Assembly (NCBI GenBank): GCA_045546995.1 | Contig: JAZQDW010000067.1 | Coordinates: forward strand, 1,864-65,863 | From: Eubacteriales bacterium | GTDB lineage: Bacteria; Bacillota; Clostridia; Oscillospirales; QAKW01 | DNA length: 64,000 nucleotides | Reading direction: 5' to 3' | Shown here: positions 39,189-53,429 of the stretch, piece by piece | How the letters are laid out: each line of letters opens with the position of its first letter | Position numbering within the stretch: position 1 is the first letter of the stretch | Translations under genes and position numbers: made by a program | The notes under the pieces: model-generated | The model's database searches: none | The model's input: the letters and a program-made list of their open reading frames with translations, nothing else | Told to the model about the DNA's origin: nothing

Positions 39189-39994
39189 AAACCGCGTTTT
39201 CGGCGGTCAACATTATTTTGTATATAGTACTGATGCTTCCATTGATAGCATTTCCGATCCTTTTGTTCTTTCCCTATATATTTGAAGCAAACCTGTACTT
39301 TTCAACCATCTATTACTATCTGCTATCAGGACAGATCGAACTCTTTTTGCTTTTGGTTATTTTACTGCTGTTCTTTTTTATAAAAATCATTCGTCGGGAA
39401 AAAGTTTATTATTTATTCTCATCGCTGTTGCTGATAGCAAATTGCATTTTTGACGTTTTGACTTGGAACAAACCATTGCACGCGGTTGGAATTATCGTCA
39501 AACTGTTGATTGCGATCTCATTTTTTGTTGAAGGATGGAGGGCGCGCGGAGATTATTTCTCAAAGCACAGGAAAAACTTGCGTTTTTCTGTTTGTTGGGG
39601 TAGTGTGTTGTTTTTTGCCGGCTTTTTGCAATATATGTTGCTGAAATTTGAGCAAGGTCCCATTCTCATTTTTGCGGTCGCCATCTTATTTGTTGTCGGA
39701 CAAGCAATTTGGTTCATCTGTCAGCACATGTCCGCAAGGGATGTTGGTTACATTTGGCTTGGCTCGACATTTGTATGGGGGCTCCTTTCTTCTTGGTTAT
39801 CGTTGCTGCTGTATAAGCCGTTTCCATATTGGTTTGATGTTTCCGAAGATTATATGAATGAAAAATTTTGGCCGTTTTTTGTTTTCCAAATCCTTCATTT
39901 GGTAACAATGGGCATTGTGTGGTGCATCAAGGCAAGAGGCGGTTCTAAGAAAACAGAAAGAAATAACACAGGGGACGATTCTCTTGTCTCCTGA
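39170..39994 (+). CDS. polytopic membrane protein, putative cognate immunity protein
   Basis: Overlaps the rhs stop by 19 nt. AT-rich like the toxin tip. About 8 hydrophobic segments. Start choice uncertain (TTG 39149, ATG 39170 or ATG 39233). Confidence 0.55.
   Translation: MVRNFLKTAFSAVNIILYIVLMLPLIAFPILLFFPYIFEANLYFSTIYYYLLSGQIELFLLLVILLLFFFIKIIRREKVYYLFSSLLLIANCIFDVLTWNKPLHAVGIIVKLLIAISFFVEGWRARGDYFSKHRKNLRFSVCWGSVLFFAGFLQYMLLKFEQGPILIFAVAILFVVGQAIWFICQHMSARDVGYIWLGSTFVWGLLSSWLSLLLYKPFPYWFDVSEDYMNEKFWPFFVFQILHLVTMGIVWCIKARGGSKKTERNNTGDDSLVS
39967..39991 (+). repeat. REP-like element (degenerate core GGGGACGATTCT, mixed arms)
   Basis: cacaGGGGACGATTCTcttgtctcc. Supplies the last codons and the stop of the immunity gene. 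Confidence 0.7.
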
Positions 39995-40052
39995 CCTGTT
40001 GACCGGCTATGCTAAAACCGAGGGCGGTGTCACCCCCACCTTGTCCGTGGCA
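39993..40052 (+). pseudogene. orphan rhs fragment A
   Basis: Matches rhs 37881..37922 joined to 38382..38399 at a shared GTCACC, equivalent to an in-frame 459-bp deletion. Ends at a REP-like element. Confidence 0.8.
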
Positions 40053-40063
40053 AATTGCAAGGG

Positions 40064-40088
40064 AACACAGGGGACGGTTCTGTGTGTT
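40064..40088 (+). repeat. REP-like element, stem version 2 (ACACAG/CTGTGT)
   Basis: aacacagGGGACGGTTCTgtgtgtt. Confidence 0.8.
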
Positions 40089-40089
40089 G

Positions 40090-40249
40090 ACGGGCGTGAT
40101 CCAAAAGCTCATCAAGGTGCGGGCGGCAAGCTCTACCTCGGTCACCCCCACCTTGTCCGTGGCGGTGGAATATAAGTACGACCCCTACGGTAAGCTTCTG
40201 TCTATCACCAAGGCCAGCGGCGAGAGTGTGGGCACCTACAACCCCCTCG
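40090..40249 (+). pseudogene. orphan rhs fragment B
   Basis: 160 bp matching rhs 38325..38484 with 6 mismatches by hand alignment. Homology stops exactly at the next REP-like element. Confidence 0.85.
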
Positions 40250-40281
40250 GGGGGGACAAGGGGACGGTTCTCTTGTCCCCC
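40249..40281 (+). repeat. REP-like element, stem version 1 (GGGGGACAAG/CTTGTCCCCC)
   Basis: gggggggacaagGGGACGGTTCTcttgtccccc. Confidence 0.85.
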
Positions 40282-40330
40282 GGCTCCTTAACAAACGGAA
40301 ATACAACAAATAGCTTTGGTGTAAAATTGC

Positions 40331-40368
40331 AACACAGGGGACCAACACAGGGGACGGTTCTATGTGTT
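40331..40368 (+). repeat. REP-like element, version 2, with a partial 5' duplication
   Basis: aacacaggggacc then aacacagGGGACGGTTCTatgtgtt. The 3' flank runs into the -35 of the RAYT-like gene. Confidence 0.8.
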
Positions 40369-40395
40369 GACGATTTTAGTTTGCTATGTTACAAT
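40367..40395 (+). promoter_or_regulatory. candidate promoter of the RAYT-like gene 1
   Basis: TTGACG, 17-nt spacer, TACAAT, with TGt extended -10. The -35 overlaps the end of the REP-like element. Confidence 0.55.
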
Positions 40396-40412
40396 CAAAT
40401 TGGTGATGCGAT

Positions 40413-41159
40413 ATGCCAAGACAGGCGAGACAGAAAAGCGAAAGCAGAATCTACCATGTAATGCTTCGCGGAATCAATCAACAACAAATTTTTGAGGATT
40501 CAGAAGATTATGATAAGTTCCTCAATATTATGAAAGACTGTAAGGCAATATGCGAATTTAAGCTATTTGCATATTGCCTTATGAGAAATCATATTCATTT
40601 ACTTATTAAAGAGTGCAAAGAGCCGTTGGAACAAATATTTAAACGAATCTGCGGACGATTTGTATACTGGTATAATATCAAGTACCGACGTACAGGCCAC
40701 TTGTTTCAGGATCGTTTTAAAAGCGAGCCGGTGGATTCGGAGAAGTATTTCTTCACCGTACTGCGCTATATCCACCAAAACCCTACCAAGGCAGGTATTT
40801 GTAAGTGTGTTGAGGACTATGCCTACAGCAGTTATTCGGAATATACTGGTATAAGCAGACTTGTTGACACAGAATATGTTTGGGCACTGACTACGCTTGA
40901 AGATTTTGTTGGCCTTAATCATGAAACAGTTGACACGCCCTGTTTGGATGTTTCCGAGAAAGTCATTGCGCGCGTAACGGACGAACAAGCAAGAGCAATC
41001 ATCAAAAAGATCGCGCGGTGTGACAACGTTTCGGATTTCCAAAACTTAGATCTTGTGACCAGGGATAAATGTTTGAAAAAGTTTAGAGACAAAGGAATTT
41101 CAATCAGACAGCTAAGCAGATTAACGGGCATCAGTTTTAGTATTGTGAGAAAATTCTAA
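40413..41159 (+). CDS. RAYT-type (IS200-like Y1/HUH) transposase-like protein with C-terminal HTH
   Basis: HUH motif NHIHLLI. Tyr motif LRYIHQNP. GHLFQDRFKS. C-terminal GISIRQLSRLTGIS helix-turn-helix. Confidence 0.8.
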   Translation: MPRQARQKSESRIYHVMLRGINQQQIFEDSEDYDKFLNIMKDCKAICEFKLFAYCLMRNHIHLLIKECKEPLEQIFKRICGRFVYWYNIKYRRTGHLFQDRFKSEPVDSEKYFFTVLRYIHQNPTKAGICKCVEDYAYSSYSEYTGISRLVDTEYVWALTTLEDFVGLNHETVDTPCLDVSEKVIARVTDEQARAIIKKIARCDNVSDFQNLDLVTRDKCLKKFRDKGISIRQLSRLTGISFSIVRKF

Positions 41160-41160
41160 T

Positions 41161-41216
41161 CACACACAGAACCGTCCCCTGTGTTCTATCACACACAGAA
41201 CCGTCCCCTGTGTTCT
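41161..41216 (-). repeat. two tandem REP-like elements (version 2) inverted relative to the upstream copies
   Basis: cacacacAGAACCGTCCCCtgtgttct repeated with a 29-bp period, starting 2 nt after the RAYT stop. Confidence 0.85.
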
Positions 41217-41399
41217 AATATTAACTGTTCTGTTAATCCAAGGTATCATCTGTATAATTCGGTTTTTCAAAAAGTAAATAATAGGTAGGATACAGAGGAT
41301 GGCTTCCAGATTGGCAACTCGTAATCTCAACAACAAAAATAGGGACGATTCTCCATTAAAAAGGAACTTTTATGTGACAATCAAGGAACGGACAATCAA

Positions 41400-41461
41400 G
41401 GGACAGTTCTTTGCCTCGGAAAAACTTAAACAGGGGGACAAGGGGACGGTTTTCTTGTCTC
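41400..41461 (+). repeat. direct-repeat copy 1 (gggacagttctttgcctcggaaaaacttaaacaggg) fused to a version-1 REP-like element
   Basis: 36-nt block repeated at 42577..42612 with 1 mismatch. REP gggggacaagGGGACGGTTTTcttgtctc at 41433..41461. Confidence 0.75.
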
Positions 41462-41480
41462 GAACAAAGGAGATGTTGCT

Positions 41481-42566
41481 ATGATAAAAAAACGAATGGT
41501 CTGCATATGTGCTATTATGTTGCTGTTGTTTTCTTCTTGTGGAAGCACAAATATAGTAGATCGTTTTGCCGAAACGGAACTGACAAAAGAAATCGCACAA
41601 ACCATTGTGCATTCTTTTAATTCTGCTCAGATTGATCAACCTTTTTCAACATCAGATGTTGTTCCCTATGAAATGGCATTTAAGTATTTTCGTTATTTTG
41701 GATTTTATAATGAAAAGGGTGAAATGCGCCCACAAGTGGTTTCATATCAAGATGGCTTGAAATACAAGGTGCCACGCAAAGTGGTGGATACGTATTTGAG
41801 TTCAAAGTTTAATACGACTCCAAGCGCCAAAAGCATTTCATGCTATGATGCACAGAGCGACTCTTATGTGATCGCACCCGTAGACAGTTATGCCGGAAAA
41901 ATAACGATTGATTCCATTGATAAGCTGGATAACAACCAATATCAAATCCACGCAACTGTGCAAGATGAACCGACAGAAACTCTTTTTTCTTTTGAGCAAA
42001 CGTTTACAATTGAGTATAACGGGTCATTTAAGTTTTTATCCTTTGAAGAAAAAGAGAAGGCATTTCAAGAGTTGACGGCAGAGGAACAAAAACTTTTATC
42101 GTATATTAATGATTATTATTTCTTTGATACACGTCAGTATTATGATGAAGATCACAAGATTCCTTATGACGTTGCTTTTAAGTGTTTTGCCATCTACGGT
42201 TTTTGGGATAACAATGGGGCTCTGCGCAAGGAATTAAAGCAGTATGCCACCGGAAATGAATACGAAGATCCATATAATATTCCTGCGAAAATAGTAGATG
42301 ACTTTGTCGCTTCAAGGTTTGACGTAGAGATAGATCGATCCAATATTGAAAATTACAATAAAGAAAGCGACTCATATCTCATTCTACCGAACGCTGCAGA
42401 TGGGCACGATTTTGCAGAATTGATAAGTTATGAACGTTCCGGAAACATCTATAGGATTATTGTAAATCAGCGGAATTGGTTAGATCCGAATTTGGTTGAA
42501 AAGCAAATGTTTCGTCTTGAAATAAATGACGAGAACTGCAAATATCTTGCTTTTACCAAGATTTGA
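41481..42566 (+). CDS. lipoprotein with internal two-fold duplication, function unknown (possible orphan immunity protein)
   Basis: Lipobox LLLFSSCGS. Two ~170-aa repeats (PYEMAFKYFRYFGFYNEKGEMR... and PYDVAFKCFAIYGFWDNNGALR...). AT-rich. Confidence 0.65.
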   Translation: MIKKRMVCICAIMLLLFSSCGSTNIVDRFAETELTKEIAQTIVHSFNSAQIDQPFSTSDVVPYEMAFKYFRYFGFYNEKGEMRPQVVSYQDGLKYKVPRKVVDTYLSSKFNTTPSAKSISCYDAQSDSYVIAPVDSYAGKITIDSIDKLDNNQYQIHATVQDEPTETLFSFEQTFTIEYNGSFKFLSFEEKEKAFQELTAEEQKLLSYINDYYFFDTRQYYDEDHKIPYDVAFKCFAIYGFWDNNGALRKELKQYATGNEYEDPYNIPAKIVDDFVASRFDVEIDRSNIENYNKESDSYLILPNAADGHDFAELISYERSGNIYRIIVNQRNWLDPNLVEKQMFRLEINDENCKYLAFTKI

Positions 42567-42572
42567 AAGAGA

Positions 42573-42639
42573 CAATGGGACAGTTCTTTGCCTCGGGAAA
42601 ACTTAAACAGGGCGGGAGATTTTCTCCCGCCCTGTTTTT
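42573..42639 (+). repeat. direct-repeat copy 2 plus terminator hairpin; left copy of the nested inverted repeat (partner 50712..50782)
   Basis: gggacagttctttgcctcgggaaaacttaaaCAGGGCGGGAGAttttTCTCCCGCCCTGttttt. The hairpin works as a bidirectional terminator for the lipoprotein and nitroreductase genes. Confidence 0.8.
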
Positions 42640-43165
42640 ATTTATAGCTGACAAGTTCGTCCAGGGATTTGCGCTTTTTGGGGCGAAGCTTGTCTCCCTC
42701 GGCGGCGTAGCCTAACGTGATGACCAACCGCACCGGCGTGTTCAGATCGCAGGCCGTGCGGATCTTTTGATCGTCAAACCAGCCGAGGATACAGGTGGAC
42801 AAGCCCTGCGCCGTTGCCTCGGCGGTAAGATAGGCACTGAGAATGCCGATATCAATGGAACGGTAATCGTTCCCCTTGAGTTTGGCCCCAACGGCGGCTG
42901 TGCGCACGTAGGGGCGTTCGCTGATAACGATCAGTACGGGGGCTTTGGCGGCAAATTTATTCATTCCCATACCCATAGTAGCGCCGGCCACGGTACGGGC
43001 AGTATCACCGGTACATACTGTTATATGATAGGGCTGACCGTTGCAGGCAGAGGGAGCAAGGCGCGCCGCCTGCAGCACCGCCTCCAGCTTGTCCTGTTCC
43101 ACCGACCGATCGGCATCATAAGCGCGGCAGGACTGCCGCAGACGTGCGATCTCTGAAAAATTCAT
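42638..43165 (-). CDS. nitroreductase family protein
   Basis: RQSCRAY...APSACNGQP motif. Confidence 0.8.
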   Translation of the reverse strand: MNFSEIARLRQSCRAYDADRSVEQDKLEAVLQAARLAPSACNGQPYHITVCTGDTARTVAGATMGMGMNKFAAKAPVLIVISERPYVRTAAVGAKLKGNDYRSIDIGILSAYLTAEATAQGLSTCILGWFDDQKIRTACDLNTPVRLVITLGYAAEGDKLRPKKRKSLDELVSYK

Positions 43166-44031
43166 AGTTCTTTCTCCTTTCGGGCGGCGATAAATGCCGT
43201 AATTTCTTCGAGTCGGCGTTTGCCTTCCGCCACACCCTCGTCATACACGCGCTGCAGGACGGCCGGGTCGTGCTCGATATGCCCGATCTGCAGGGGCGCA
43301 GACGGACGAATGACCAAAGCCTTCCCTGCCCTCTCCAGCGTTTCGATATAAGCAAGAGTTTCGTTATACACCGTATGGCGCTGTTGCATCGCCCGAACAA
43401 TGCCGGGATGCTTTCGCAACAGCAGGCGCATCAACGGCACCAGCTTGTTGGGTTTTTTACGGTATCCGTCGGGTCGGGTCAAGATGATGATATTATGCCC
43501 ATATCCCCGCTCCTCCAAAAACCGAATGGGAATAGAATCGGCAATACCGCCGTCCAGATACGTCCTTCCTTCCAGTTTGACCGGCGTGGATACCAACGGC
43601 ATCGAGGCAGAAGCACGCATCCATTCCAGCCCTTCCCGATCGCTACGCTCCAGCTTACGGTAGGTCGGCGCACCGCTGATCGTTTCGGTGCAGACCACGT
43701 AAAATTCGGTGGGATCGGCGGCAAAGGCATCGTTATCAAAGGGATCCAGCGTTTCGGGCAGCTCCCGATAGCAAAAATCTGCGCCGTACAAGTCCCCTGT
43801 TTTGATCAACGAGCGAAAGCTGCAAAACCGTGGGTCCTTACAATATTTTTTATTATAACGCAGTACCCGACCGATCTGTCGAGATTTATAATTACATCCA
43901 AAGGCCGCCCCTGCCGAAACGCCCACAATGGCATCCACCGACAGGCCTGCCGTCAGCATTACGTCCAGCACACCGGCCGTAAACAGACCGCGCATGGCGC
44001 CGCCTTCCAAAACCATACCTGTTTTCATCAT
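43162..44031 (-). CDS. patatin-like phospholipase
   Basis: GGAMRG oxyanion motif and GVSAG nucleophile elbow. Confidence 0.85.
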   Translation of the reverse strand: MMKTGMVLEGGAMRGLFTAGVLDVMLTAGLSVDAIVGVSAGAAFGCNYKSRQIGRVLRYNKKYCKDPRFCSFRSLIKTGDLYGADFCYRELPETLDPFDNDAFAADPTEFYVVCTETISGAPTYRKLERSDREGLEWMRASASMPLVSTPVKLEGRTYLDGGIADSIPIRFLEERGYGHNIIILTRPDGYRKKPNKLVPLMRLLLRKHPGIVRAMQQRHTVYNETLAYIETLERAGKALVIRPSAPLQIGHIEHDPAVLQRVYDEGVAEGKRRLEEITAFIAARKEKEL

Positions 44032-45767
44032 TCTTCTGCGATCAGATCATTATCACGGAATTGCAGAGCGTATAGATCCTTATACGTTCCGCCGGCTGCC
44101 ATCAATTCCTCGTGGGTGCCCCGTTGGGTGATCTTTCCGTCAACTACCACGGCGATCTCGTCCGCATTGCGGATGGTGGACAGACGATGGGCGACCACCA
44201 GAGTGGTACGGCCCTTACACAACTCATCGAGCGCCTGCTGGATCAATACCTCGGTGGTATTATCCAGCGCGCTGGTGGCCTCGTCCAAAATCAAAATGGC
44301 CGGATCCTTCAAAAACACGCGAGCGATGCTCAACCGTTGCTTTTGACCGCCGGAAAGCTTTACGCCACGTTCACCGATCTCGGTATCATAGCCGTTTTCC
44401 AGCGTCATCACGTAATCGTGAATTTTGGCCTGTTTGGCGGCGGTGATCATCTCCTCCTCGGTGGCGTCGGGGCGACCGTACATAATGTTCTCCCGAATGG
44501 TGCCCACAAACAAAAATACGTCCTGCTGTACGATGCCGATATTCCGCCGCACCGAATCCAGCGTCAGTTTGCGCAGGTCGGTGCCGTCAATGCAGATACT
44601 GCCGCCATCCTCCCCGAGCTGATAAAAGTTGGGCAAAAGATGGCACAGGGTGGTTTTACCGCCGCCCGAGGGGCCGACCAACGCCAGCTTACGGCCGGGG
44701 GCCAGATGCAGATCAATATGATGCAGTACCTCATTTTCCTCTTCATAGGCGTAGCAAACGTCCTTGAATTCGATCTCACCACGGACGTTTTCCAACGGTA
44801 TCGCATCGGGAGCATCCTGCTCGGCCGGCTCCTCCATGACCTCCACAAAGCGTTTAAAGCCGCTGACACCGTTTTGAAATTGCTCCATGAAGCCGATAAG
44901 GGTAGTCACGGGGTTGATAAACAAATTGACCGATACGATAAAGGTGGAATAATCACCGAAGGAGATCCGTCCGGCGTAGAGAAACAGGCCGCCGGCAATC
45001 AGAATAAACACGTTAAATACGTCGGTCACAAAGGTGGTGGAGGAATGAAACTTCGCCATGGCGTGATACGCCCGACGGGAGGAATCCACAAATTCCTCAT
45101 CCCCCACCCCGAATTTTTCGATTTCACGCTCGGCATTGGTATAGGCCTTCGTCACGCGGATGCCGGTGACACTGCTTTCCACCGCCGCATTGATGGTGGC
45201 ATTGCTTTTGCGCCGATCATCAAAGGCCAGGCGCATTGCCTTGCGATAATGCATAGTCACCGCCATCAAAATGGGCACGCAGGTGAAGATGATCAGCGTC
45301 AATATCCAATCAATGGACATCAGATAGGCAAAGGACAGCACGATCATCACCGTACAGATCAGCAGATTTTCCGGGCCGTGATGCGCCAGTTCGCACACCT
45401 CGAACAGATCGCTGGTGATACGGGTCATAATTCGTCCCGTTTCGTTTTGATCGTAAAAGCGGAACGGCAGTCTTTCCAGATGGGCAAACAGATCCTTCCG
45501 CATCTGCGACTGCATCCGTACGCCGATGACGTGGCCATAATATTGCACAAAATACCGCAAAAACATCCGCACCACGTACAGCGCCAGCACGATAACGCCG
45601 GCAATAACGATAGTGGTATACATCTTTTGCGGGATATATTCATTGAGCATCTTATTGGTGACGATGGGATAGACCATACCGATCACCGAGATCATCAGCG
45701 CCGCCAGCATATCGAATATCAGCATTTTAATATGCGGTTTATAGTAGGCGATAAAACGTTTAAGCAT
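44028..45767 (-). CDS. ABC transporter, fused permease/ATPase (MsbA-like exporter)
   Basis: 6-TM N-domain. Walker A GPSGGGKTT, LSGGQKQR, ILILDEATSALD. ATG 45767 after AGGAGG. Confidence 0.9.
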   Translation of the reverse strand: MLKRFIAYYKPHIKMLIFDMLAALMISVIGMVYPIVTNKMLNEYIPQKMYTTIVIAGVIVLALYVVRMFLRYFVQYYGHVIGVRMQSQMRKDLFAHLERLPFRFYDQNETGRIMTRITSDLFEVCELAHHGPENLLICTVMIVLSFAYLMSIDWILTLIIFTCVPILMAVTMHYRKAMRLAFDDRRKSNATINAAVESSVTGIRVTKAYTNAEREIEKFGVGDEEFVDSSRRAYHAMAKFHSSTTFVTDVFNVFILIAGGLFLYAGRISFGDYSTFIVSVNLFINPVTTLIGFMEQFQNGVSGFKRFVEVMEEPAEQDAPDAIPLENVRGEIEFKDVCYAYEEENEVLHHIDLHLAPGRKLALVGPSGGGKTTLCHLLPNFYQLGEDGGSICIDGTDLRKLTLDSVRRNIGIVQQDVFLFVGTIRENIMYGRPDATEEEMITAAKQAKIHDYVMTLENGYDTEIGERGVKLSGGQKQRLSIARVFLKDPAILILDEATSALDNTTEVLIQQALDELCKGRTTLVVAHRLSTIRNADEIAVVVDGKITQRGTHEELMAAGGTYKDLYALQFRDNDLIAEE

Positions 45768-47052: not shown

Positions 47053-47053
47053 G

Positions 47054-47096
47054 CAAAGAAACCTGATTTGTCTGGTAGACAAATCAGGTTTCTTTG
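47054..47096. other. 20-bp perfect-stem hairpin abutting the tRNA-Val(GAC) 3' end
   Basis: CAAAGAAACCTGATTTGTCT ggt AGACAAATCAGGTTTCTTTG. Confidence 0.7.
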
Positions 47097-47097
47097 T

Positions 47098-47173
47098 TGG
47101 TGGGAGTAACAGGACTCGAACCTGTGACCCCTTGCACGTCAAGCAAGTGCTCTACCAGCTGAGCTATACTTCC
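47098..47173 (-). tRNA. tRNA-Val (anticodon GAC), with encoded CCA
   Basis: Cloverleaf read by eye. Anticodon loop TTGACGT. GTTCGAGTC T-loop. One A3:C70 mismatch in the acceptor stem. Confidence 0.8.
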
Positions 47174-47188
47174 ATTTTGTACTATGTT

Positions 47189-47216
47189 ATTATATCACAC
47201 TTTTTTGAAAATGCAA
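47189..47216 (-). promoter_or_regulatory. candidate separate promoter for tRNA-Val(GAC)
   Basis: On the minus strand: TTGCAT, 16-nt spacer, TATAAT, with TGa extended -10. Confidence 0.45.
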
Positions 47217-47295
47217 TACCTTTTTTAAAAAAGTGATCGAAAGTCGCTGTATCGCCTGCGGCGAGACAGCTCTGCGCGAACTGCAGACTGCGACC

Positions 47296-47333
47296 AAAAG
47301 AAAAAGCATCCCGATAGGGATGCTTTTTCTTTT
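47296..47333 (-). terminator. long hairpin terminator after the three-tRNA unit
   Basis: AAAAGAAAAAGCATCCC gata GGGATGCTTTTTCTTTT, a 17-bp stem. Confidence 0.6.
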
Positions 47334-47408
47334 GGTGGAAGTTACAGGGCTCGAACCTGTGACCCTCTGCTTGTAAGGCAGATGCTCTCCCAGCTGAGCT
47401 AAACTTCC
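47333..47408 (-). tRNA. tRNA-Val (anticodon TAC), with encoded CCA
   Basis: Perfect acceptor stem GGAAGTT/AACTTCC. Anticodon loop CTTACAA. Confidence 0.85.
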
Positions 47409-47416
47409 GTGGGATA

Positions 47417-47491
47417 TGGTGACCCGGACGGGAATCGAACCCGTGTTACCGCCGTGAAAGGGCGGTGTCTTAACCGCTTGACCACCGGGCC
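47417..47491 (-). tRNA. tRNA-Glu (anticodon TTC), with encoded CCA
   Basis: GGCCCGGTGGTCAAGCGGTTAAGAC...CTTTCAC anticodon loop...GGTTCGATTCC. Confidence 0.85.
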
Positions 47492-47495
47492 AAAA

Positions 47496-47572
47496 TGGTA
47501 GCGGCAGCGGGATTCGAACCTGCGACCAATCGGGTATGAACCGAGTACTCTAGCCAACTGAGCTATGCCGCC
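47496..47572 (-). tRNA. tRNA-Met (anticodon CAT, elongator-like), with encoded CCA
   Basis: GGCGGCATAGCTCAGTTGGCTAGAG...TTCATAC anticodon loop. Lacks the initiator features. Confidence 0.8.
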
Positions 47573-47610
47573 ATATATTCGGCCGCTTGATTTCTCAACG
47601 GCGCTCGTAT

Positions 47611-47639
47611 ATCTTACTACAACTCGGCAACTTTGTCAA
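47611..47639 (-). promoter_or_regulatory. candidate promoter of the tRNA operon
   Basis: On the minus strand: TTGACA, 17-nt spacer, TAAGAT. Confidence 0.55.
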
Positions 47640-47657
47640 CAGTTTTTTAAAAAAAAA

Positions 47658-47685
47658 TTGATTTTTTTCATTTATATGGTATAAT
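47658..47685 (+). promoter_or_regulatory. candidate promoter of dusB
   Basis: TTGATT, 16-nt spacer, TATAAT, with TGg extended -10. Confidence 0.55.
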
Positions 47686-47718
47686 GTTAGCGCAATCAAC
47701 AGGAAATGGTATGGATAT

Positions 47719-48675
47719 ATGACGTTTAAACAACAACCGATCTTTTTAGGCCCGATGGCGGGCAACGGCGATTACGCCTTTCGGCGGATCTGCAAGGAGG
47801 CGGGCGCCGATTTTGTAGTCACCGAAATGATCAGCGCAAAGGCCGTATTTTACCACGACAAAAAAACAAAGTTATTGGCTAACATACGGGCGGATGAGCG
47901 ACCCTGTTTTTTACAGTTGTTCGGCTCGGAGGAACAATGTCTGGACTACGCCGTTAAGGAGCTGGAGGAGGAATTTTCTCCCGAAGGCTTTGACATCAAT
48001 ATGGGTTGCCCTGCCCCCAAGATCTTCAACAACGGTGAGGGCAGTGCCCTATTGCAGGATCTGCGCAAGGCAGAACGAGTGCTGGGCGCCGTGCGGCGCG
48101 CCACAAAGTTGCCCGTAAGCGTCAAAATGCGGCTGGGCGTGGCAACGGGAGATTACGTTGCCGTGGAGGCAGCAAAGTGCTTTGAGGCGGCCGGCGCGGA
48201 TTTTTTGGCCGTACACGGCCGTTACAGAGAGCAATATTACAGCGGCAAAGCGGATTGGAACAAAATCGCCCCCGTCAAGGCCGCCGTCAACATCCCCGTC
48301 ATTGCCAACGGCGATATTACCACGGTGCAAGACTATCGGGACGTTTTGAAGGTCACCGGTGCCGACGGCATTATGGTGGCAAGAGGCGCGTTGGGCGACC
48401 CCCATTTATTCACCCGTCTTGCCGCCTGGAGAGACAGCGGCGCCGTGCTTGCCCCCCAACCCCTTGCCCAACGGCTGGAGACCGCCCTGCAGCAGTTGGA
48501 TCTGGCCATTGCCGACAAGGGCGAAAAGGCGGCTGTTTTGGAAATGCGTAAGCATCTTTTATGGTACGTTAAAGGCGTCCGCGGCGCCGCCGCTTATAAA
48601 AACCGATGCTGTAAGGTCACCACGCGGGCTGAATGCGTGGCGTTATTGACCCAAATTGCAGAGAACAACAAATAA
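47719..48675 (+). CDS. dusB: tRNA-dihydrouridine synthase
   Basis: LGPMAG...FDINMGCPAPK catalytic Cys region. Confidence 0.9.
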   Translation: MTFKQQPIFLGPMAGNGDYAFRRICKEAGADFVVTEMISAKAVFYHDKKTKLLANIRADERPCFLQLFGSEEQCLDYAVKELEEEFSPEGFDINMGCPAPKIFNNGEGSALLQDLRKAERVLGAVRRATKLPVSVKMRLGVATGDYVAVEAAKCFEAAGADFLAVHGRYREQYYSGKADWNKIAPVKAAVNIPVIANGDITTVQDYRDVLKVTGADGIMVARGALGDPHLFTRLAAWRDSGAVLAPQPLAQRLETALQQLDLAIADKGEKAAVLEMRKHLLWYVKGVRGAAAYKNRCCKVTTRAECVALLTQIAENNK

Positions 48676-48676
48676 A

Positions 48677-48722
48677 GCAGGCTGTCAAAGTGGTGAAACG
48701 ACTTTTTGACAGCCCGCTTTTT
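48677..48722. terminator. bidirectional terminator (dusB / cupin gene)
   Basis: GGCTGTCAAA/TTTGACAGCC stem followed by a T-run. Confidence 0.65.
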
Positions 48723-49122
48723 ATTTACATAGAGCGACGATCTGCGCCTTTTGCTCCTCGGTAAGATCCACAATGGGAGAATTGGACAGGCCCGTTTCAA
48801 TATTTTCTACCACCACGACGGCGGTGCCGGGCTCCAGAATATGGGTGTGCCACACGCCTTTTTTGACGTTGTAATATTGCAATGGCTCCATAGACACGCC
48901 GTGGATCTCCCCCGGAGCATCCCCGTCCCCTGCTTCAATCAACGTACATTTGCCCTGCAGCAGAATAAATACCTCGTCGGTCAGCGTATGCTTTTGCAGG
49001 TAGGAAACGCCGTCCGGGGAAGTTTTGTAGCTATCCTTTAAGATGGCGGCGGTCCAGCCACCGAATTCCACCAAACGCTTGTACCCCTCTCCCGGATGGG
49101 AAACGATCTCGATCATTGCCAT
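48721..49122 (-). CDS. cupin domain protein (133 aa)
   Basis: ATG 49122 after AAGGAGGG. Beta-rich cupin-like sequence with HTH...E. The track ORF extension to 49431 is unsupported. Confidence 0.6.
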   Translation of the reverse strand: MAMIEIVSHPGEGYKRLVEFGGWTAAILKDSYKTSPDGVSYLQKHTLTDEVFILLQGKCTLIEAGDGDAPGEIHGVSMEPLQYYNVKKGVWHTHILEPGTAVVVVENIETGLSNSPIVDLTEEQKAQIVALCK

Positions 49123-49221
49123 ATTAAACCCTCCTTTTTTAATATTATACACAACGGAGGGAAGATTGACAAGTACCGCGGGATATGATATCATATTAAA
49201 GTTTTTAAAGGAGAGTGTAAA

Positions 49222-49827
49222 ATGAGCATTTTTGAGATACTGGTACTGGGCGTCGCCTTTTCCATGGACGCCTTTGCCGTAGCCATCTGCAAGGGTTTGT
49301 CCGTGCAAAAGATGAAACTGCAGCACGCACTGACCGTCGGCGCATACTTTGGTATTTTTCAGGGTGTGATGCCCGCCCTTGGCTATTTGATGGCATTTAA
49401 ATTTGAAAGAATGATCAATTCCTTTTCCCACTGGATCGCCTTTGTTCTATTGGCGTTAATCGGCGCCAATATGATCAAGGAGGCGCTGGACAAGGAGGAG
49501 GAGTGCTGTAACGCCTCCTTTGGCTTCCGCACCATGCTGCCGCTGGCCGTTGCCACCAGCATCGATGCATTGGTGGGCGGCGTTAGCTTCGCCTTTGCCG
49601 GGATGACCCCCGCTTTTTTATTGGTGGCCGTATCCACCATTGCGGTCATGACCTTCACCTTCTCCGCCATTGGTGTAAAGGTGGGCAATATGTTTGGCGC
49701 AAAATACAAAAACAAGGCCGAGCTGGCCGGCGGCATTGCGTTGATCGTTATCGGCATCAACGTGGTGCTCAACCGTTACGGCATCGGCAGTGATGCGCTG
49801 ATTGAATGGATTAAAGGATTGTTTTAA
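49222..49827 (+). CDS. mntP: manganese efflux pump MntP
   Basis: Duplicated DAFAVA / DALVGG motifs in a 6-TM protein. Confidence 0.85.
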   Translation: MSIFEILVLGVAFSMDAFAVAICKGLSVQKMKLQHALTVGAYFGIFQGVMPALGYLMAFKFERMINSFSHWIAFVLLALIGANMIKEALDKEEECCNASFGFRTMLPLAVATSIDALVGGVSFAFAGMTPAFLLVAVSTIAVMTFTFSAIGVKVGNMFGAKYKNKAELAGGIALIVIGINVVLNRYGIGSDALIEWIKGLF

Positions 49828-49828
49828 G

Positions 49829-50647
49829 ATGGAGCATTTTATTTGTCCGGTTTGCGGAGAAAACTTAACAGAGAGCGCACACGAGTTTCGTTGCGGCAAC
49901 AACCATTGCTTTGACCGGGCTAAAAGCGGATACGTAAATCTCCTGCGCAGTCAGGTCTCGGGCAAAAAGCGGCACGGCGACGACAAGCTGATGATTCGCG
50001 CCCGCACCGATTTTTTGGAAAAAGGATACTATCAACCGCTGTTGGACGGCATTTTGGAAATTTGTGACCGTCTACAGGACAGAAAGGTACATATCTGTGA
50101 CATTGGTTGCGGTGAAGGATGGTACACCGACGGTGTTTTCCGTCATCTGCGGACGCAGGACAAGGTGGTACAGATGGAGGGCATCGACATTTCCAAGGAT
50201 GCGCTGACCGCCGCCGCCAAACGCAACGAAAAGATCGGCTTTGCCGTGGCCAGCATTTCCGCCCTGCCCATTGCCGACGAAAGCGTAGATCTGCTGCTGA
50301 ATTTATTTGCGCCCTTTGACGAGGGCGAATATGCCCGTGTGCTGAAAAAGGGCGGCATCTGGCTGAAAGCCATTCCGTTGGAGCGACATCTGTTCGGTCT
50401 GAAGGCCGCCATCTATGAAAGGCCATATGAAAACGAGGTCAAAACAGAGGAGCATCCCGGCTTTACGTTAACAGAAACCAAGAAGATCCGCTATAGCATC
50501 ACCTTGAGCGGCGAGGACAAGGGTAATTTATTCCGTATGACCCCCTATTACTACAAAACCGGCAAAGAGGATCAGCAGAAACTGGAAAATGCGGAAAGTA
50601 TTACCACAGAGATCGAGTTTGCCCTGTTGTGCTATCAAAAGCAGTGA
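49829..50647 (+). CDS. SAM-dependent rRNA methyltransferase, RlmA(I)/RrmA-like
   Basis: N-terminal Zn ribbon CPVCGENL...CGNNHCFD and SAM motif DIGCGEGWY. Confidence 0.75.
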   Translation: MEHFICPVCGENLTESAHEFRCGNNHCFDRAKSGYVNLLRSQVSGKKRHGDDKLMIRARTDFLEKGYYQPLLDGILEICDRLQDRKVHICDIGCGEGWYTDGVFRHLRTQDKVVQMEGIDISKDALTAAAKRNEKIGFAVASISALPIADESVDLLLNLFAPFDEGEYARVLKKGGIWLKAIPLERHLFGLKAAIYERPYENEVKTEEHPGFTLTETKKIRYSITLSGEDKGNLFRMTPYYYKTGKEDQQKLENAESITTEIEFALLCYQKQ

Positions 50648-50676: not shown

Positions 50677-50708
50677 CCCCCTTATTCAAAATAAGGGGGC
50701 TCTTTTTT
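50677..50708 (+). terminator. intrinsic terminator
   Basis: CCCCCTTAT/ATAAGGGGG stem followed by a T-run. Confidence 0.75.
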
Positions 50709-50711
50709 GCT

Positions 50712-50782
50712 CAAAAACAGGGCGGGAGAAAATCTCCCGCCCCGTTTAAGTTTTTCTAAGTCAGAGAACCGTCCCCTGATTG
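50712..50782 (-). repeat. right copy of the nested inverted repeat (hairpin plus aaaacttaaac block plus REP-like core)
   Basis: Its reverse complement caatcaGGGGACGGTTCTctgacttagaaaaacttaaacggggcgggagattttctcccgccctgttttt aligns to 42573..42639. The 42-nt inner block has 2 mismatches. Confidence 0.8.
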
Positions 50783-51306
50783 CCCTTGATCAACTGTTGA
50801 ATTATAGTTTCCTCTTGTGATCCCATAGATAACTGCGTAATATCTTTTATACTAATATAACTCTTGCCGTCTTCGTTTCCATCAACATCAAATTGTTTTA
50901 TAACACAGATATCATGTAGTACAGAATCGACTTTACCAATAACATCCCATTCGCCACTGCTAAGCAATTCCAAAGATACAAGTTGTTTTTTATTTTGAGC
51001 AAAATTCAACAACGACATTAAAGCATTTTCTTGAAATTCTATATCAATCTCAGGCAAAGCTTTTGTTTGCATCAATTTCTGCATTCGTTGATTGTAACAA
51101 CTATCAAGTTCTATACGAAAAACATCTCCAACACTTTTGAGCATAATGCCATCATAATTTCCGTCCGGTAGCAGAAGATACATAACAAACCACTCTGCAT
51201 CTACATACAGCACTTTGCCAAATAAAAATTTGGAGGTGTTATACCCGTTTGTGTATACCGAAGCAAAAATGTTTTTATCACGAATCTCTTTTAAAGTAAT
51301 CAACAT
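50761..51306 (-). CDS. hypothetical cytoplasmic protein (181 aa), possible orphan immunity protein
   Basis: AAGGAGA SD 7 nt upstream. AT-rich. The last 7 codons and the stop lie in a REP-like element. Confidence 0.6.
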   Translation of the reverse strand: MLITLKEIRDKNIFASVYTNGYNTSKFLFGKVLYVDAEWFVMYLLLPDGNYDGIMLKSVGDVFRIELDSCYNQRMQKLMQTKALPEIDIEFQENALMSLLNFAQNKKQLVSLELLSSGEWDVIGKVDSVLHDICVIKQFDVDGNEDGKSYISIKDITQLSMGSQEETIIQQLIKGNQGTVL

Positions 51307-51340
51307 ATCTTATTCTCCTTATGTAGTAATAATTTTCTGC

Positions 51341-51400
51341 GCAAGGGACAAGGGAGGGACAAGAGGACAGAGGGACAAGGGGACGGTTCTCTTGTCCCCC
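51341..51400 (+). repeat. REP-like element (version 1) with an iterated GGGACAAG 5' arm
   Basis: gcaagggacaagggagggacaagaggacagagggacaagGGGACGGTTCTcttgtccccc. Confidence 0.8.
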
Positions 51401-51513
51401 TGGCCAAAATTACTTTACACGGTTAAGTTTATACAATATCCTTTTCCCCAAGTTCCTATCAAAAGTTTGGTATCATGATCATAAAACTCGGCAAAACAGC
51501 CGTGATCTATCTC

Positions 51514-51545
51514 GGGGAGACAAGGGGACGGTTCTCTTGTCTCCT
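51514..51545 (+). repeat. REP-like element (version 1)
   Basis: ggggagacaagGGGACGGTTCTcttgtctcc followed by T7. Lies 5 nt from the RAYT-like gene 2 stop. Confidence 0.85.
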
Positions 51546-51549
51546 TTTT

Positions 51550-52293
51550 TTAAATGTTTGATTCTACAATTTTCTTAGAAATACCAGTTAATCGAGCAAT
51601 TTGCCTTATCGATAAACCTTTGTTATGCAATTTGCTAATATAGAAATTACGTTTTTCTTTATCAAGTTTTTGAAAATCTGCTGCTGTCTTACATTTTGTG
51701 CTTTTCAATATAATCGTTTTTGCTTCAGCATCTGTCAAGCGATAATGTTCATCCATTTCTAAACAATTATCCGCATTTTCTTCTCTGTGATACTCAATAA
51801 ATTGATCCTTCGTAATCATCGAAAGAGCAAAACTTGTATCAACAAAAACCGGAGTTCCTAAATATTCTTTTATGCTACTGTTGGCGTATTCCTCTGCCTT
51901 TATGCATATCCCTGCCTTCACAGGATTCTGATGAATATACCGCAACACCGTGAGAAAATAGCTATCATCCTCAACAGGTTCACTCTTGAATCGATCCTGA
52001 AACAAATGTCCACAGCGGTGATATTTCCAGTTATACCAATAAACATAACTCCCGGCAATTCGTTTAAATATGGCGCTTAATTCTTCTGCGCCTTCTCGCA
52101 ACAGAATATGTATATGATTCCCCATCAAGCAATACGCATATACTGTATATCCGCATAATTCCTTATATAGGGCAAGTGTTTCAACAAATCTTTGACAATC
52201 TTCTCCATCCTCAAATATCTGTTGACGATTGATTCCTCTCAATATTATGTGGTATATTCCACTATCGCTCTTTTTTCGTGCTTGACGTGGCAT
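51550..52293 (-). CDS. RAYT-type (IS200-like Y1/HUH) transposase-like protein with C-terminal HTH, diverged paralog
   Basis: NHIHILL, LRYIHQNP, GHLFQDRFKS, GLSIRQIARLTGIS. N-terminal domain about 64% identical to the 40413..41159 product by hand alignment, C-terminal part lower. Confidence 0.8.
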   Translation of the reverse strand: MPRQARKKSDSGIYHIILRGINRQQIFEDGEDCQRFVETLALYKELCGYTVYAYCLMGNHIHILLREGAEELSAIFKRIAGSYVYWYNWKYHRCGHLFQDRFKSEPVEDDSYFLTVLRYIHQNPVKAGICIKAEEYANSSIKEYLGTPVFVDTSFALSMITKDQFIEYHREENADNCLEMDEHYRLTDAEAKTIILKSTKCKTAADFQKLDKEKRNFYISKLHNKGLSIRQIARLTGISKKIVESNI

Positions 52294-52310
52294 AACTATC
52301 ACCCAATTTG

Positions 52311-52339
52311 ATAATACATCATCATCTATTTTTTGTCAA
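52311..52339 (-). promoter_or_regulatory. candidate promoter of the RAYT-like gene 2
   Basis: On the minus strand: TTGACA, 17-nt spacer, TATTAT. The -35 directly follows a REP hairpin plus T5. Confidence 0.55.
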
Positions 52340-52345
52340 GAAAAA

Positions 52346-52435
52346 GGGGACAAGAGAACCGTCCCCTTGTCTCCCAGAGAACCGTCCCCTTGTCTCCCGA
52401 GAAAAAGGGGACAAGAGAACCGTCCCCTTGTCTCC
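52346..52435 (-). repeat. three REP-like elements (version 1) in inverted orientation
   Basis: Complement cores AGAACCGTCCCC at 52355, 52378 and 52416. On the minus strand two of them read as hairpin plus T5. Confidence 0.85.
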
Positions 52436-52662
52436 TAAATATAATAGTCCCCTTGCGTTGTTTTGACAATCAATCGGGAATCTGTTGTGAATTTAGCAAC
52501 GCTCGGTTGCACCATATCGGAGAAACGCGAAACGTGCTCTCCCGTTTTTTTGTCATATAAATTCGCGCTGCCGCCGCAACAACAAAAATATTTCTCATTA
52601 TGCGCGATGTGATATGATTTCTTGAAAGTAAATAGAATCTCTTTTTTATCAATCACTTTCAT
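52435..52662 (-). CDS. 75-aa ORF, probably a truncated gene remnant
   Basis: AAGGAGG upstream (a GTG at 52656 is better spaced). The ORF ends exactly at the REP cluster boundary. No motif recognised. Confidence 0.35.
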   Translation of the reverse strand: MKVIDKKEILFTFKKSYHIAHNEKYFCCCGGSANLYDKKTGEHVSRFSDMVQPSVAKFTTDSRLIVKTTQGDYYI

Positions 52663-52711
52663 TCCCTCCTTACCATAATCCGCCCATTTGTATATCCCAT
52701 TTTACAAATCA

Positions 52712-52723
52712 TGGGACGGTTCC
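52712..52723 (+). repeat. degenerate REP-like core
   Basis: tGGGACGGTTCC followed by ctgattg (compare 50777..50783). Confidence 0.5.
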
Positions 52724-52737
52724 CTGATTGACTCCTG

Positions 52738-53079
52738 CTATGTCTTTTCGTTTTGACTTGACCATCCGCATTGATCACAACAAATCACATTGTTTCGCAT
52801 GGTGACAGTACCAAATAAAATGCGCGTCGTTCCCAAAGTAACACGTTCCTTTTGTGGGTCAGCCAAATGTTTGTGCCATACTTTATGCGTTTTGGCACCG
52901 CAATTCGGACAAACTTTAAATCGACGTTCAAAAAGTATATGTTGAACAAAGATCGTAATTGCAATCATCACAAATAAAACTCCAGCCGCAATGATGGATG
53001 CTTTAAGTCCGAAAACTTGTTTAATAATGCCCAAAATCACGAACATAAATAATGGAAATAGTAGTTTGTTGTTCTTCAT
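52738..53079 (-). CDS. small membrane protein with C-terminal zinc ribbon (113 aa)
   Basis: Two hydrophobic helices then CPNCG...CDQCG. AT-rich. Confidence 0.55.
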   Translation of the reverse strand: MKNNKLLFPLFMFVILGIIKQVFGLKASIIAAGVLFVMIAITIFVQHILFERRFKVCPNCGAKTHKVWHKHLADPQKERVTLGTTRILFGTVTMRNNVICCDQCGWSSQNEKT

Positions 53080-53088
53080 TGGAAACTA

Positions 53089-53388
53089 TCACTCCTCAGA
53101 TTCTATGTTCTTCTTTTGCCAGCGTATAAGTGCATAACTCATAGAAAGAAAGCAGAAATATGTTGTAATCATGAATACGATGGGCATCTCCGGAAATCGG
53201 TGATTTAAAATTGCATGTACGATTATTGCGGGAATCATATGTAAAAAAGTATAACCAATAGATCCCCACCATAGTTTAAAACTTTTATGGGGATAATATA
53301 TATAATTGTACAGCCAAACAAAAAGACTAAAAATATGAATAATTGGTATCCACATAATTTTCTTTTGCGTACTAATCGAAATTTTCAT
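53089..53388 (-). CDS. small polytopic membrane protein (99 aa)
   Basis: ATG 53388 after GAGGAGAAAAG. The track N-extension is a translated REP element. Confidence 0.55.
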   Translation of the reverse strand: MKISISTQKKIMWIPIIHIFSLFVWLYNYIYYPHKSFKLWWGSIGYTFLHMIPAIIVHAILNHRFPEMPIVFMITTYFCFLSMSYALIRWQKKNIESEE

Positions 53389-53402
53389 TTCTTTTCTCCT
53401 CA

Positions 53403-53429
53403 GAGACAAGGGGACGGTTCTCTTGTCCC
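53403..53429 (+). repeat. REP-like element (version 1) between the right leader and the first gene
   Basis: gagacaagGGGACGGTTCTcttgtccc. Confidence 0.85.

Follow-up and report, generated by a model that had tools for sequence, protein, structure and literature searches.

Y1-HUH transposase genes bracketed by constant-loop hairpins, one of them beside an Rhs toxin gene, in a Clostridia genome: closest likeness to TIRtrons

Introduction

RAYT/TIRYT-type HUH proteins are very widespread, and outside the Proteobacteria their function and DNA targets are essentially unknown. In this study, we analyzed 64,000 nt of forward-strand DNA from a Eubacteriales bacterium (GCA_045546995.1, contig JAZQDW010000067.1, positions 1,864-65,863; hereafter the window), which contains two genes for such proteins, RAYT1 and RAYT2, a hairpin repeat that accompanies both, and a full-length gene for an Rhs toxin. 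We regard it as rather probable that the region holds two selfish elements of the TIRtron type, lodged in low-GC accessory DNA, and that the approximately 14 solo, tandem or truncated hairpins present besides the two units are non-autonomous by-products of these elements.

TIRtrons have been described as RAYT-like genes flanked by terminal inverted repeats (TIRs) that share the motif GGGGWSAS, with some TIR families being repeated (Di Nocera et al., 2013, PMC3733652). The encoded proteins, TIRYTs, have been equated with subclass 2.1 of the TnpAY1 proteins, which has a C-terminal helix-turn-helix (HTH) domain (Bac_DnaA_C, HTH_23 or HTH_28), and no REP-like sequences were found near subclass 2.1 genes (Quentin et al., 2018, PMC6006769). 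Repetitive extragenic palindromic (REP) sequences are defined by a GTAG or GTGG tag at the 5' end, a GC-rich stem and a loop of 2-5 nt (PMC6006769). In the RAYT classification, Group 1 occurs in Clostridia, is the group most like insertion sequences (IS), and has low-copy flanking repeats of about 12 copies (Bertels et al., 2017, PMC5581495).

The building and pruning of orphan Rhs arrays in Gram-positive bacteria is largely undescribed. H-rpt (ISAs1-type) insertion sequences have long been known downstream of E. coli rhs cores. If a mobile element had ends that coincide with the borders of cassettes and with the points where rhs fragments are truncated, it would drive the turnover of toxin repertoires in gut communities.

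Results and Discussion

Two diverged Y1-HUH proteins

RAYT1 and RAYT2 (248-250 aa) are members of the Y1-HUH transposase superfamily by profile, motifs and fold, as a preliminary description of the window had proposed. Both match Pfam PF01797 (Y1_Tnp; 52.0 and 52.8 bits, cut-off 23, E about 1e-13), and they are 53% identical to each other over 245 residues. The motifs N59-H60-I-H62 and Y119-IHQNP are invariant in 25 homologues and align with HMH and YIYINP of E. coli TnpAREP (4er8), which is also the best PDB match of the AlphaFold model (predicted local distance difference test score 87.7; E 8.6e-9, template modelling (TM) score 0.83). The TnpA proteins of ISDra2, IS200 and IS608 are weaker structural matches (TM about 0.6, E about 1e-5), and by sequence search alone 4er8 is matched at no better than E = 0.07.

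Against the NCBIfam RAYT equivalog NF047646 the two proteins score 75.8 and 67.9 bits, both under the cut-off of 80. Residues 190-246 form a confident helical tail in the AlphaFold model, and HTH matches in this tail are all sub-threshold (HTH_7 with 23.4 bits against 23.8, as well as HTH_23 and HTH_28). By analogy with characterized relatives, the enzyme would be a single-strand DNA nuclease/ligase with a small C-terminal HTH tail. The family is large, with 7152 clusters matching at E <= 1e-10; JGI labels the homologues "REP element-mobilizing transposase RayT", and a scan of viral contigs for relatives of RAYT1 returned none.

A hairpin with a constant loop and a paralog-specific stem

The core of the repeat is the 12-mer GGGGACGGTTCT, with 12 exact matches in the window against 0.00 expected, and 20 matches against 3.6 expected if up to two mismatches are allowed. 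Twelve exact and six near copies all lie within 39971-53421. These are the 18 positions that had been picked out by eye, two of them shifted by one base (41399 and 42576), and the statement that the rest of the window is free of the repeat stands as well, the only extra matches (32364 and 37563, two mismatches each) being at chance level.

This motif forms the loop (11-12 nt, invariant) of a hairpin with a covarying stem. From Clostridia to Atribacterota the loop, (G)GGGACGGTTCT, is invariant and the stem is specific to the paralog. Stem class A (AACACAG / CTGTGTT) brackets RAYT1, and class B (GGGACAAG / CTTGTCCC) brackets RAYT2 and is scattered through both hairpin clusters too. Class C (CAATCAG / CTGATTG) is present in the window as decayed copies only and brackets a third RAYT paralog in a related genome (locus L121). 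Because each paralog has its own stem class, the earlier claim that the paralogs share one REP family is correct for the loop, but not for the stem.

Covariation was evaluated in 148 non-redundant hairpins from loci that had been found via the protein, so that the stems were not ascertained. Pairing was seen in 73.2% of cells, against 55.5±0.9% in shuffles (0 of 500 shuffles equalled it), and the covariation score was 0.507, against 0.218 for shuffled stems and 0.13-0.19 in slid registers. All nine of nine stem pairs showed changes on both sides, and covariation was counted a second time independently. As folded DNA, type B hairpins reach -8 to -12 kcal/mol (z -3 to -4), whereas type A hairpins fold weakly (-4 to -5.5 kcal/mol) and are without T-runs. 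No matching family was found in an Rfam search, and a literature search for the motif gave chance matches to primers only. When one genome per species was scanned for exact matches, at least 120 loci had the loop between stem arms; among the matches listed, most are from Bacillota and some from Atribacterota, Omnitrophota, Aminicenantes and Bacteroidota, and several are plus/minus doublets or adjoin a RAYT homologue.

L121 repeats the arrangement of the window: two diverged Y1 paralogs (10001-10747 and 17367-18131) point towards each other across 7 kb, and each has a stem class of its own, but here the neighbours are lexA, bofA, serS and parAB.

Gene and inverted hairpins form discrete units

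Each gene and its inverted hairpins form a discrete module (Table 1). Hairpins run in the same sense upstream and are inverted downstream of each HUH gene, and with the repeat counts, both genes and this layout confirmed, the preliminary description was correct at the level of the sequence. Inverted hairpins bracket the gene at fixed geometry in 55 relatives; in the RAYT1 clade, the distance is 62 nt from core to ATG and 815-819 nt from core to core, and TTGACA stands at the foot of the left hairpin. Identical or nearly identical units recur in different places: L127, L128 and L129 have in common a 100% identical segment of exactly 844 bp, running from outer hairpin foot to outer hairpin foot, in unrelated flanks, and five further loci (L139, L140, L142, L143 and L145) have in common an 848-bp unit (98.7-99.5% identity), the homology of which stops 11-22 nt from the hairpin centres. 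A systematic search for hairpin-bounded homology returned five unit families, each in unrelated flanks; nothing other than HUH units, and in particular no toxin/immunity cassette, was bounded by hairpins on both sides in two contexts.

Predicted promoters lie directly upstream of both genes, with TTGACG (40367-40372), a 17-nt spacer and TACAAT (ending at 40395, extended -10, score 10/12) for RAYT1, and TTGACA, a 17-nt spacer and TATTAT for RAYT2. The left hairpin overlaps the -35 box of its own promoter, which suggests autoregulation; binding at this hairpin would occlude the enzyme's own -35 box. The same overlap also speaks for a role in transcription or in RNA, with hairpins acting as terminators, insulators or portable -35 boxes, their orientation relative to rhs reflecting a function within the transcript, and the HUH-HTH protein serving chiefly as a DNA-binding regulator. 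T-runs after type B hairpins (51516-51549, and 52339-52374 on the minus strand), a strong same-sense bias of hairpins near rhs, and two open reading frames (ORFs) that take their stop codons from hairpins point in this direction. We consider such a role very improbable, however, as both orientations are seen, inverted doublets included, type A hairpins are weak and lack T-runs, TTGAC follows only 5% of solo copies, and Rfam holds no match. Moreover, the catalytic HUH and Tyr residues are invariant, and a regulatory role leaves the identical units in different flanks unexplained.

Truncated tandem hairpin copies break just past the loop. Directly outside both unit ends, the outer stem arm is stuttered two to four times (e.g. 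TAGCA-TAGCA-TAGCACA-TAGCACAG), as seen among many loci at L126 9880-9920, L136 10760-10800, and positions 40333-40343 and 51346-51370 of the window. We also considered whether solo hairpins are copies of the left end that carry its -35 box, and rejected the idea as a general rule, since TTGAC follows 42% of left ends as against the low figure for solo copies given above.

Comparison with described classes

Set beside the published descriptions, the units fit best into the TIRtron/TIRYT class (Y1-HUH subclass 2.1), and they are probably also Group 1 RAYTs in the sense of Bertels et al. (2017). As in TIRtrons, a RAYT-like Y1-HUH protein that is longer than classical RAYTs and ends in a putative HTH-like tail is combined with terminal inverted repeats that have a common G-rich motif and lie at a fixed distance from the gene. 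The repeats are sometimes moderately abundant, as dimers or clusters, there are several paralogs per genome, each with its own TIR, and the occurrence in Clostridia with low-copy flanking repeats is also alike. The published motif GGGGWSAS is approached by GGGGACGG, at 7 of 8 positions. Differences are that the TIR is here a covarying hairpin with an invariant 11-12 nt loop, and that unit mobility, local clustering and association with Rhs are undescribed in PMC3733652, PMC6006769 and PMC5581495. The family is already known; the hairpin anatomy, the mobility of the unit, the local clustering and the lineage-specific Rhs association are new within the literature searched.

The REP/RAYT reading of the preliminary description was apt for superfamily and layout, while the features that define REPs are absent. 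An ordinary domesticated system, in which a vertically inherited single-copy RAYT keeps a genome-wide REP family and the cluster and the Rhs neighbour are incidental, would agree with the naming of homologues as RayT by JGI, with TnpAREP as the nearest solved structure and its aligned HUH and Y motifs, with the inverted palindromic repeats around the gene, which are a RAYT hallmark, and with solo copies and REPIN-like plus/minus doublets elsewhere, including other genomes. It is nevertheless improbable. The locus is not a classical REP/RAYT system, or REPtron (E. coli TnpAREP with REP, BIME and REPIN), because it departs from one in tag, loop, single-copy status and probably copy number: there is no GTAG/GTGG tag, and the conserved part is not a 5' tetranucleotide but the loop, which is long (11 nt, not 2-5 nt), whereas the stem is variable and often AT-rich. 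Copy number is probably low, the proteins have an extra C-terminal domain and stay under the NCBIfam cut-off, and two paralogs are present in the window and in L121 (two or three per locus). The gene-plus-hairpins unit itself appears mobile, identical units being found in different flanks, and in the survey of Quentin et al. (PMC6006769) REPs were not found in the vicinity of subclass 2.1 genes.

Hairpin densities also speak to this question. In a sample of 459 kb, made up of loci of at least 9 kb that were found via proteins, hairpins occur at 0.68 per kb within 2.5 kb of a RAYT gene, at 0.105 per kb near rhs but away from RAYT, and at 0.012 per kb elsewhere (3 hairpins in 242 kb), the background being the flanks of other loci and not the source genome. 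The contrast argues against a high-copy, evenly dispersed REP family and agrees with the approximately 12 flanking-repeat copies of Group 1 RAYTs (PMC5581495).

With IS200/IS605 elements (TnpA of IS608 and ISDra2), the units have in common the Y1-HUH fold, the small single-gene format, the lack of a target duplication, identical copies in different contexts and, as we infer for the present units, hairpin ends that are recognised as single-stranded DNA. However, the ends are here inverted copies of one hairpin rather than two subterminal hairpins on the same strand, the protein is approximately 100 aa longer and the structural match weaker (TM about 0.6), and there is no conserved target tetranucleotide. 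Because the ends are inverted and no target motif is present, we do not count the units among the IS200/IS605 elements.

Association with Rhs loci

A metagenome scan with RAYT1 gave 74 loci, of which 16 have Rhs matches; among the 28 loci of 4 kb or more, 11 do. When proteins were clustered at 90% identity and a flank of at least 3 kb was required, rhs was found within 2 kb in 9/23 RAYT1-type clusters, but in 0/10 RAYT2-type clusters (Fisher p = 0.03). The RAYT1, or type-A, lineage is strongly inclined to live in Rhs arrays of Oscillospiraceae-like Clostridia, where its units lie within the array or at its distal end. For this lineage, the view of the placement as unusual fared better than expected, but it does not extend to the second hairpin cluster of the window. 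Literature searches linking Rhs with IS200, RAYT or HUH returned nothing relevant.

Layouts with Rhs, immunity gene, hairpin and RAYT were found in L126, L127, L128, L129 and L142. L126 has the order Rhs' with AHH toxin, immunity gene, hairpin, Rhs', immunity gene, hairpin and RAYT. In L127, a full Rhs gene is followed by an immunity gene, hairpin B, the unit, an inverted hairpin B and an inverted orphan cassette; in L128, genes for an Rhs fragment of 783 aa and an ankyrin immunity protein come directly after the identical unit. L142 has a main Rhs gene and three orphans, with one same-sense hairpin at each of the four cassette borders and the RAYT gene at the far end. Hairpins at cassette borders are also present in all three of L208, L209 and L210, which were picked by Rhs homology alone (44-69% identity to the Rhs protein of the window), whereas the distant Rhs locus L211 has no hairpins. 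A Y1 gene was seen in none of the available flanks of these four loci. The first hairpin past the end of the Rhs core is in rhs orientation in 38/40 matches, a count that overstates independence because many of the loci are mutually related.

These arrays resemble known orphan Rhs toxin/immunity arrays, and the H-rpt elements of E. coli, in that a main rhs gene is followed by 5'-truncated rhs fragments with toxins and immunity genes of their own, and in that mobile elements are lodged in the variable downstream region. They differ in that the lodger is a Y1-HUH hairpin element of Gram-positive gut and rumen Clostridia, and in that short hairpins mark both the borders of cassettes and the very points at which rhs fragments are truncated on their 5' side. 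Three explanations can be given for the frequent residence of type-A elements in Rhs loci: tolerated insertion in DNA that is non-essential and often exchanged, hitch-hiking on horizontally exchanged rhs modules, and a true target preference or recruited function.

Two loci deserve mention in this context. In L209 (5160-7020), a 465-aa 5'-truncated Rhs fragment and a 115-aa downstream ORF lie between hairpins of the same orientation (5160+ and 6971+, then 7009-); this lone cassette has unrelated genes around it, and a full rhs gene is absent from the adjoining 5 kb. In L130 (6859-8517), a CBM96/DNRLRE-like protein, which resembles the N-terminal part of Rhs without the YD shell, is encoded upstream of a RAYT1-type unit and could be a truncated Rhs locus.

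Breakpoints at hairpins in related strains

Related strains were compared at one chromosomal locus, identified by its common right flank, and their differences break at hairpin feet. L142 and L143 have a 3.9-kb segment with a subtilase/LRR gene directly to the right of the unit, which is absent in L145; L145 in turn has approximately 3.8 kb of cassettes to the left of the unit, which are absent in L139, and L140 has ABC-transporter genes to the left of the unit in place of the Rhs array. On its left, the unit borders directly on an immunity gene in L142 and, in L139, L141 and L143, on rhs fragments with different truncation points, which is the pattern of deletions anchored at the end of the element. 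Junctions of hairpin and rhs stand in for upstream rhs coding sequence that is still kept in sister strains. The window offers the same phenomenon, with a 160-nt rhs remnant that is cut exactly by hairpin A on the left and hairpin B on the right and differs from the main gene at six positions, all six of them synonymous.

Two further observations concern such junctions. A stretch of 130 nt in L143 (2768-2900) contains three nested hairpins, and after each comes an ever-shorter copy of one rhs 5' piece (TATTATTACTACAACGG...), which suggests repeated events at one junction. A near-copy of the loop (TCGGACGGTTCG) occurs within rhs coding sequence approximately 75 nt past the junction of hairpin and rhs (L142 6828 and 8053; L145 166, 2788 and 4597), which may be coincidence.

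It had been suggested that cutting and joining by the HUH enzyme may shuffle, truncate or silence toxin/immunity cassettes, or that the RAYT has taken on a role specific to the locus. The insertions, deletions and rhs truncations that stop at hairpin feet are in line with a part of this, but no cassette was seen moving between contexts, and active shuffling by the enzyme, like a domesticated role at the locus, would go beyond these data. In its strongest form, the idea is that recruitment of the Y1-HUH enzyme, together with its hairpins, has made a single-stranded DNA recombination platform for Rhs modules, comparable to an integron. An rhs fragment with toxin and immunity gene between same-strand hairpins has the left-end/right-end geometry of IS200/IS605, so that the segment could leave as a single-strand circle and insert next to a second hairpin, while the enzyme gene stays at the far end of the array. 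The same-orientation hairpins at 4/4 cassette borders of L142 with the RAYT gene distal, the solitary cassette of L209, the bias towards rhs orientation (p = 0.008 even against an expectation of 80%), the co-orientation of the RAYT gene with the upstream rhs array in all cases seen, and the presence of hairpins in 3/3 close Rhs relatives are in line with it.

Other data speak against such an exchange system. HUH units alone, and no toxin/immunity cassette, were hairpin-bounded in two contexts; L145 and L139 hold the same orphan fragments without the 5' hairpin that they have in L142 and L143; and the four loci ascertained by Rhs have no Y1 gene in their available flanks. Many units and hairpins are in housekeeping surroundings, the placement at borders is partly trivial, since borders are the only intergenic space in an array, and the rhs pieces of the window are debris. 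Because no cassette was seen moving and sister strains have orphans without hairpins, we hold the integron-like version to be rather unlikely; dedicated shuffling of cassettes is unproven for as long as no toxin/immunity cassette has been seen to move as a hairpin-bounded unit. The likeness to integrons (attC/IntI) is one of analogy only: cassettes are parted by imperfect hairpins that act as folded single strands, and a recombinase gene stands at one end of the array. In integrons, however, the enzyme is a tyrosine recombinase and not an HUH protein, and its gene is proximal rather than distal; hairpin-bounded toxin/immunity cassettes in two contexts were sought here and none were seen. It is a doubtful but consequential prospect that in gut and rumen Clostridia a TIRYT-class enzyme and its constant-loop hairpins capture, excise, truncate and reorder Rhs toxin/immunity cassettes. 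If true, an HUH nuclease would here take the place that a tyrosine recombinase has in integrons, and the poorly understood "domesticated" RAYT/TIRYT proteins would gain a definite function in the cell.

A model of cutting and joining at the hairpin foot

Selfish TIRtron-type elements, which we favour, would operate as follows. By analogy with TnpAREP and IS608 TnpA, the enzyme would bind the extruded hairpin on single-stranded DNA, with the constant loop as the recognition element and the stem telling the paralogs apart, and it would cut and rejoin the DNA at the hairpin foot. This reaction could move the entire unit, seed solo hairpins nearby, and yield deletions that start exactly at a hairpin. 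In Rhs arrays, type-A hairpins would in this way end up at cassette borders and truncate rhs fragments. The window is a small example, with Rhs, immunity gene, hairpin-cut rhs remnants and the RAYT1 unit; the RAYT2 islet, on this view, goes back to the sister lineage, which inserted independently and away from Rhs. For subclass 2.1, this locus and its relatives offer as candidate target a hairpin whose loop is conserved across phyla and whose stem is paralog-specific, as well as clear unit boundaries and a testable prediction of cutting and joining.

Several points weigh against this explanation. Neither a target-site rule nor a duplication was found at the unit ends, and no motif is common to the flanks of identical units. 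In IS200/IS605 the left and right ends are on the same strand, a geometry with which inverted ends are at odds, and binding, cleavage chemistry and site, and strand specificity are modelled on TnpAREP and IS608 TnpA. Approximately half of the RAYT1-type units are located among housekeeping genes (lexA/bofA, Mur ligase, SAM synthetase), and the value of p about 1e-8 for rhs near 9/23 RAYT1-type clusters is relative to a 3% Rhs background, which is an assumption of this analysis. A single event probably gave rise, by copying, to the three identical junctions of hairpin and rhs in L142 and L143. The comparison loci are mostly metagenome contigs, in which an 850-bp repeat can make chimeric joins, and the nature of the density background and the relatedness of the loci behind the orientation count, both noted above, belong here too.

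Gene content of the window

The features of the two hairpin clusters and the adjoining genes are listed in Table 1.

Table 1. Hairpins, units, rhs sequences and selected ORFs of the window
Feature	Coordinates	Strand	Remarks
Rhs toxin gene, full-length	32733..39188	+	2151 aa; profile matches
Multi-pass membrane ORF in immunity position	39149..39994	+	likely start about 39170; ORF analysis
Hairpin with hybrid A/B stem	39963..39990	+	core GGGGACGATTCT (1 mismatch)
Composite rhs remnant, about 60 nt	39993..40052	+	39993-40040 92% identical to rhs 37881-37928; 40028-40052 identical to rhs 38375-38399
Solo hairpin, type A	40064..40092	+	TTGAC at 3' foot; directly abuts rhs remnant
rhs remnant, 160 nt	40090..40249	+	main gene aa 1865-1917; 96% identical to rhs 38325-38484
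Solo hairpin, type B	40252..40279	+	DNA fold -11.8 kcal/mol, z -3.4
RAYT1 unit, 844 bp	40344..41187	+	left hairpin A 40344-40372; gene 40413-41159; inverted right hairpin A 41159-41187
Tandem duplicate of RAYT1 right-end hairpin	41188..41216	-	exact, 29 nt
Three hairpin copies	41341..41461	+	degenerate core 41341; decayed type C 41390-41420; type B 41434-41461 (core GGGGACGGTTTT)
Lipoprotein-like ORF	41481..42566	+	361 aa, without family match; between copies of 36-nt direct repeat
Decayed type-C hairpin, AAAACTTAAAC and terminator hairpin	42568..42639	+	terminator hairpin 42605-42637; left copy of 63-nt inverted repeat
Terminator and type-C hairpin	50713..50785	-	type-C hairpin 50756-50784; right, inverted copy of 63-nt composite
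ORFan	50761..51306	-	181 aa; only match among 5.8 billion proteins is itself
Solo hairpin, type B	51371..51398	+	after stuttered GGGACAAG arm pieces 51346-51370
RAYT2 unit, 859 bp	51516..52374	-	right hairpin B 51516-51543; gene 51550-52302 (likely ATG 52293); left hairpin B 52346-52374, then T-run
Truncated and full extra hairpin B	52369..52435	-	truncated past loop 52369-52397; full extra copy 52407-52434
Type-C hairpin	52705..52731	+	core GGGACGGTTCC
Solo hairpin, type B	53402..53429	+	just upstream of 117-aa membrane ORF; right edge of low-GC islet

The Rhs gene has the marks of a polymorphic toxin, namely a YD-repeat shell, an Rhs-associated core (aa 1894-1979), a variable C-terminus and a downstream ORF in immunity position; a DNRLRE domain occupies aa 317-483, and the C-terminal toxin region of 172 aa has no family match. 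The membrane ORF that follows is a candidate for the immunity gene, assigned by position only, and after it comes the first hairpin cluster with RAYT1 (39.96-42.64 kb). A housekeeping block of approximately 8 kb (42638-50647; genes for a nitroreductase, patatin, ABC exporter, 23S rRNA intervening-sequence protein, Dus, MntP and RlmA, and four tRNA genes) divides the hairpin copies into two low-GC islets. Rhs adjoins the first islet only, and a search for rhs sequence in the second cluster (50.7-53.4 kb, with RAYT2) found none. The earlier placement of the repeats inside an Rhs cassette array is right in part only. Likewise, the two orphan rhs pieces exist, but as short remnants of 160 and approximately 60 nt, neither of them a toxin cassette, and the window holds no orphan toxin cassettes. 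The small ORFs of the second cluster, which had been called immunity-like, gave no family match in profile searches, and they have, like the immunity-position ORF, the lipoprotein and the toxin tail, no homologues in any comparison locus; the label is therefore unsupported for this cluster.

GC content is 0.36-0.46 in both hairpin islets, against 0.50-0.56 around them; the low-GC stretches (38000-43000 and 50700-54000) take in both clusters, the C-terminal region of Rhs and the immunity-position ORF. Two ORFs end within hairpins: the copy at 39963-39994 supplies the immunity-position ORF with its final approximately ten codons and stop (...NNTGDDSLVS, then stop), and the type-C hairpin at 50756-50784 gives the 181-aa ORF its terminal codons and stop (...GNQGTVL, then stop).

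A direct repeat of 36 nt (41400-41435 and 42577-42612, 97% identical), which includes a decayed type-C hairpin, lies on either side of the 361-aa ORF, a cassette-like arrangement around a non-Rhs gene. An inverted repeat of 63 nt (42577-42639 and 50713-50775, 89% identical), which combines a decayed type-C hairpin with AAAACTTAAAC and a strong terminator hairpin, encloses the entire 8-kb housekeeping block with its tRNA genes and may be a composite repeat family or the trace of an inversion. An inversion between these repeats that may have split one original array was considered; re-inverting would not unite the clusters, and GC skew gives no signal. The four tRNA genes are consecutive (47101-47572, minus strand) and lie beside the gene for the 23S rRNA intervening-sequence protein (46515-47018).

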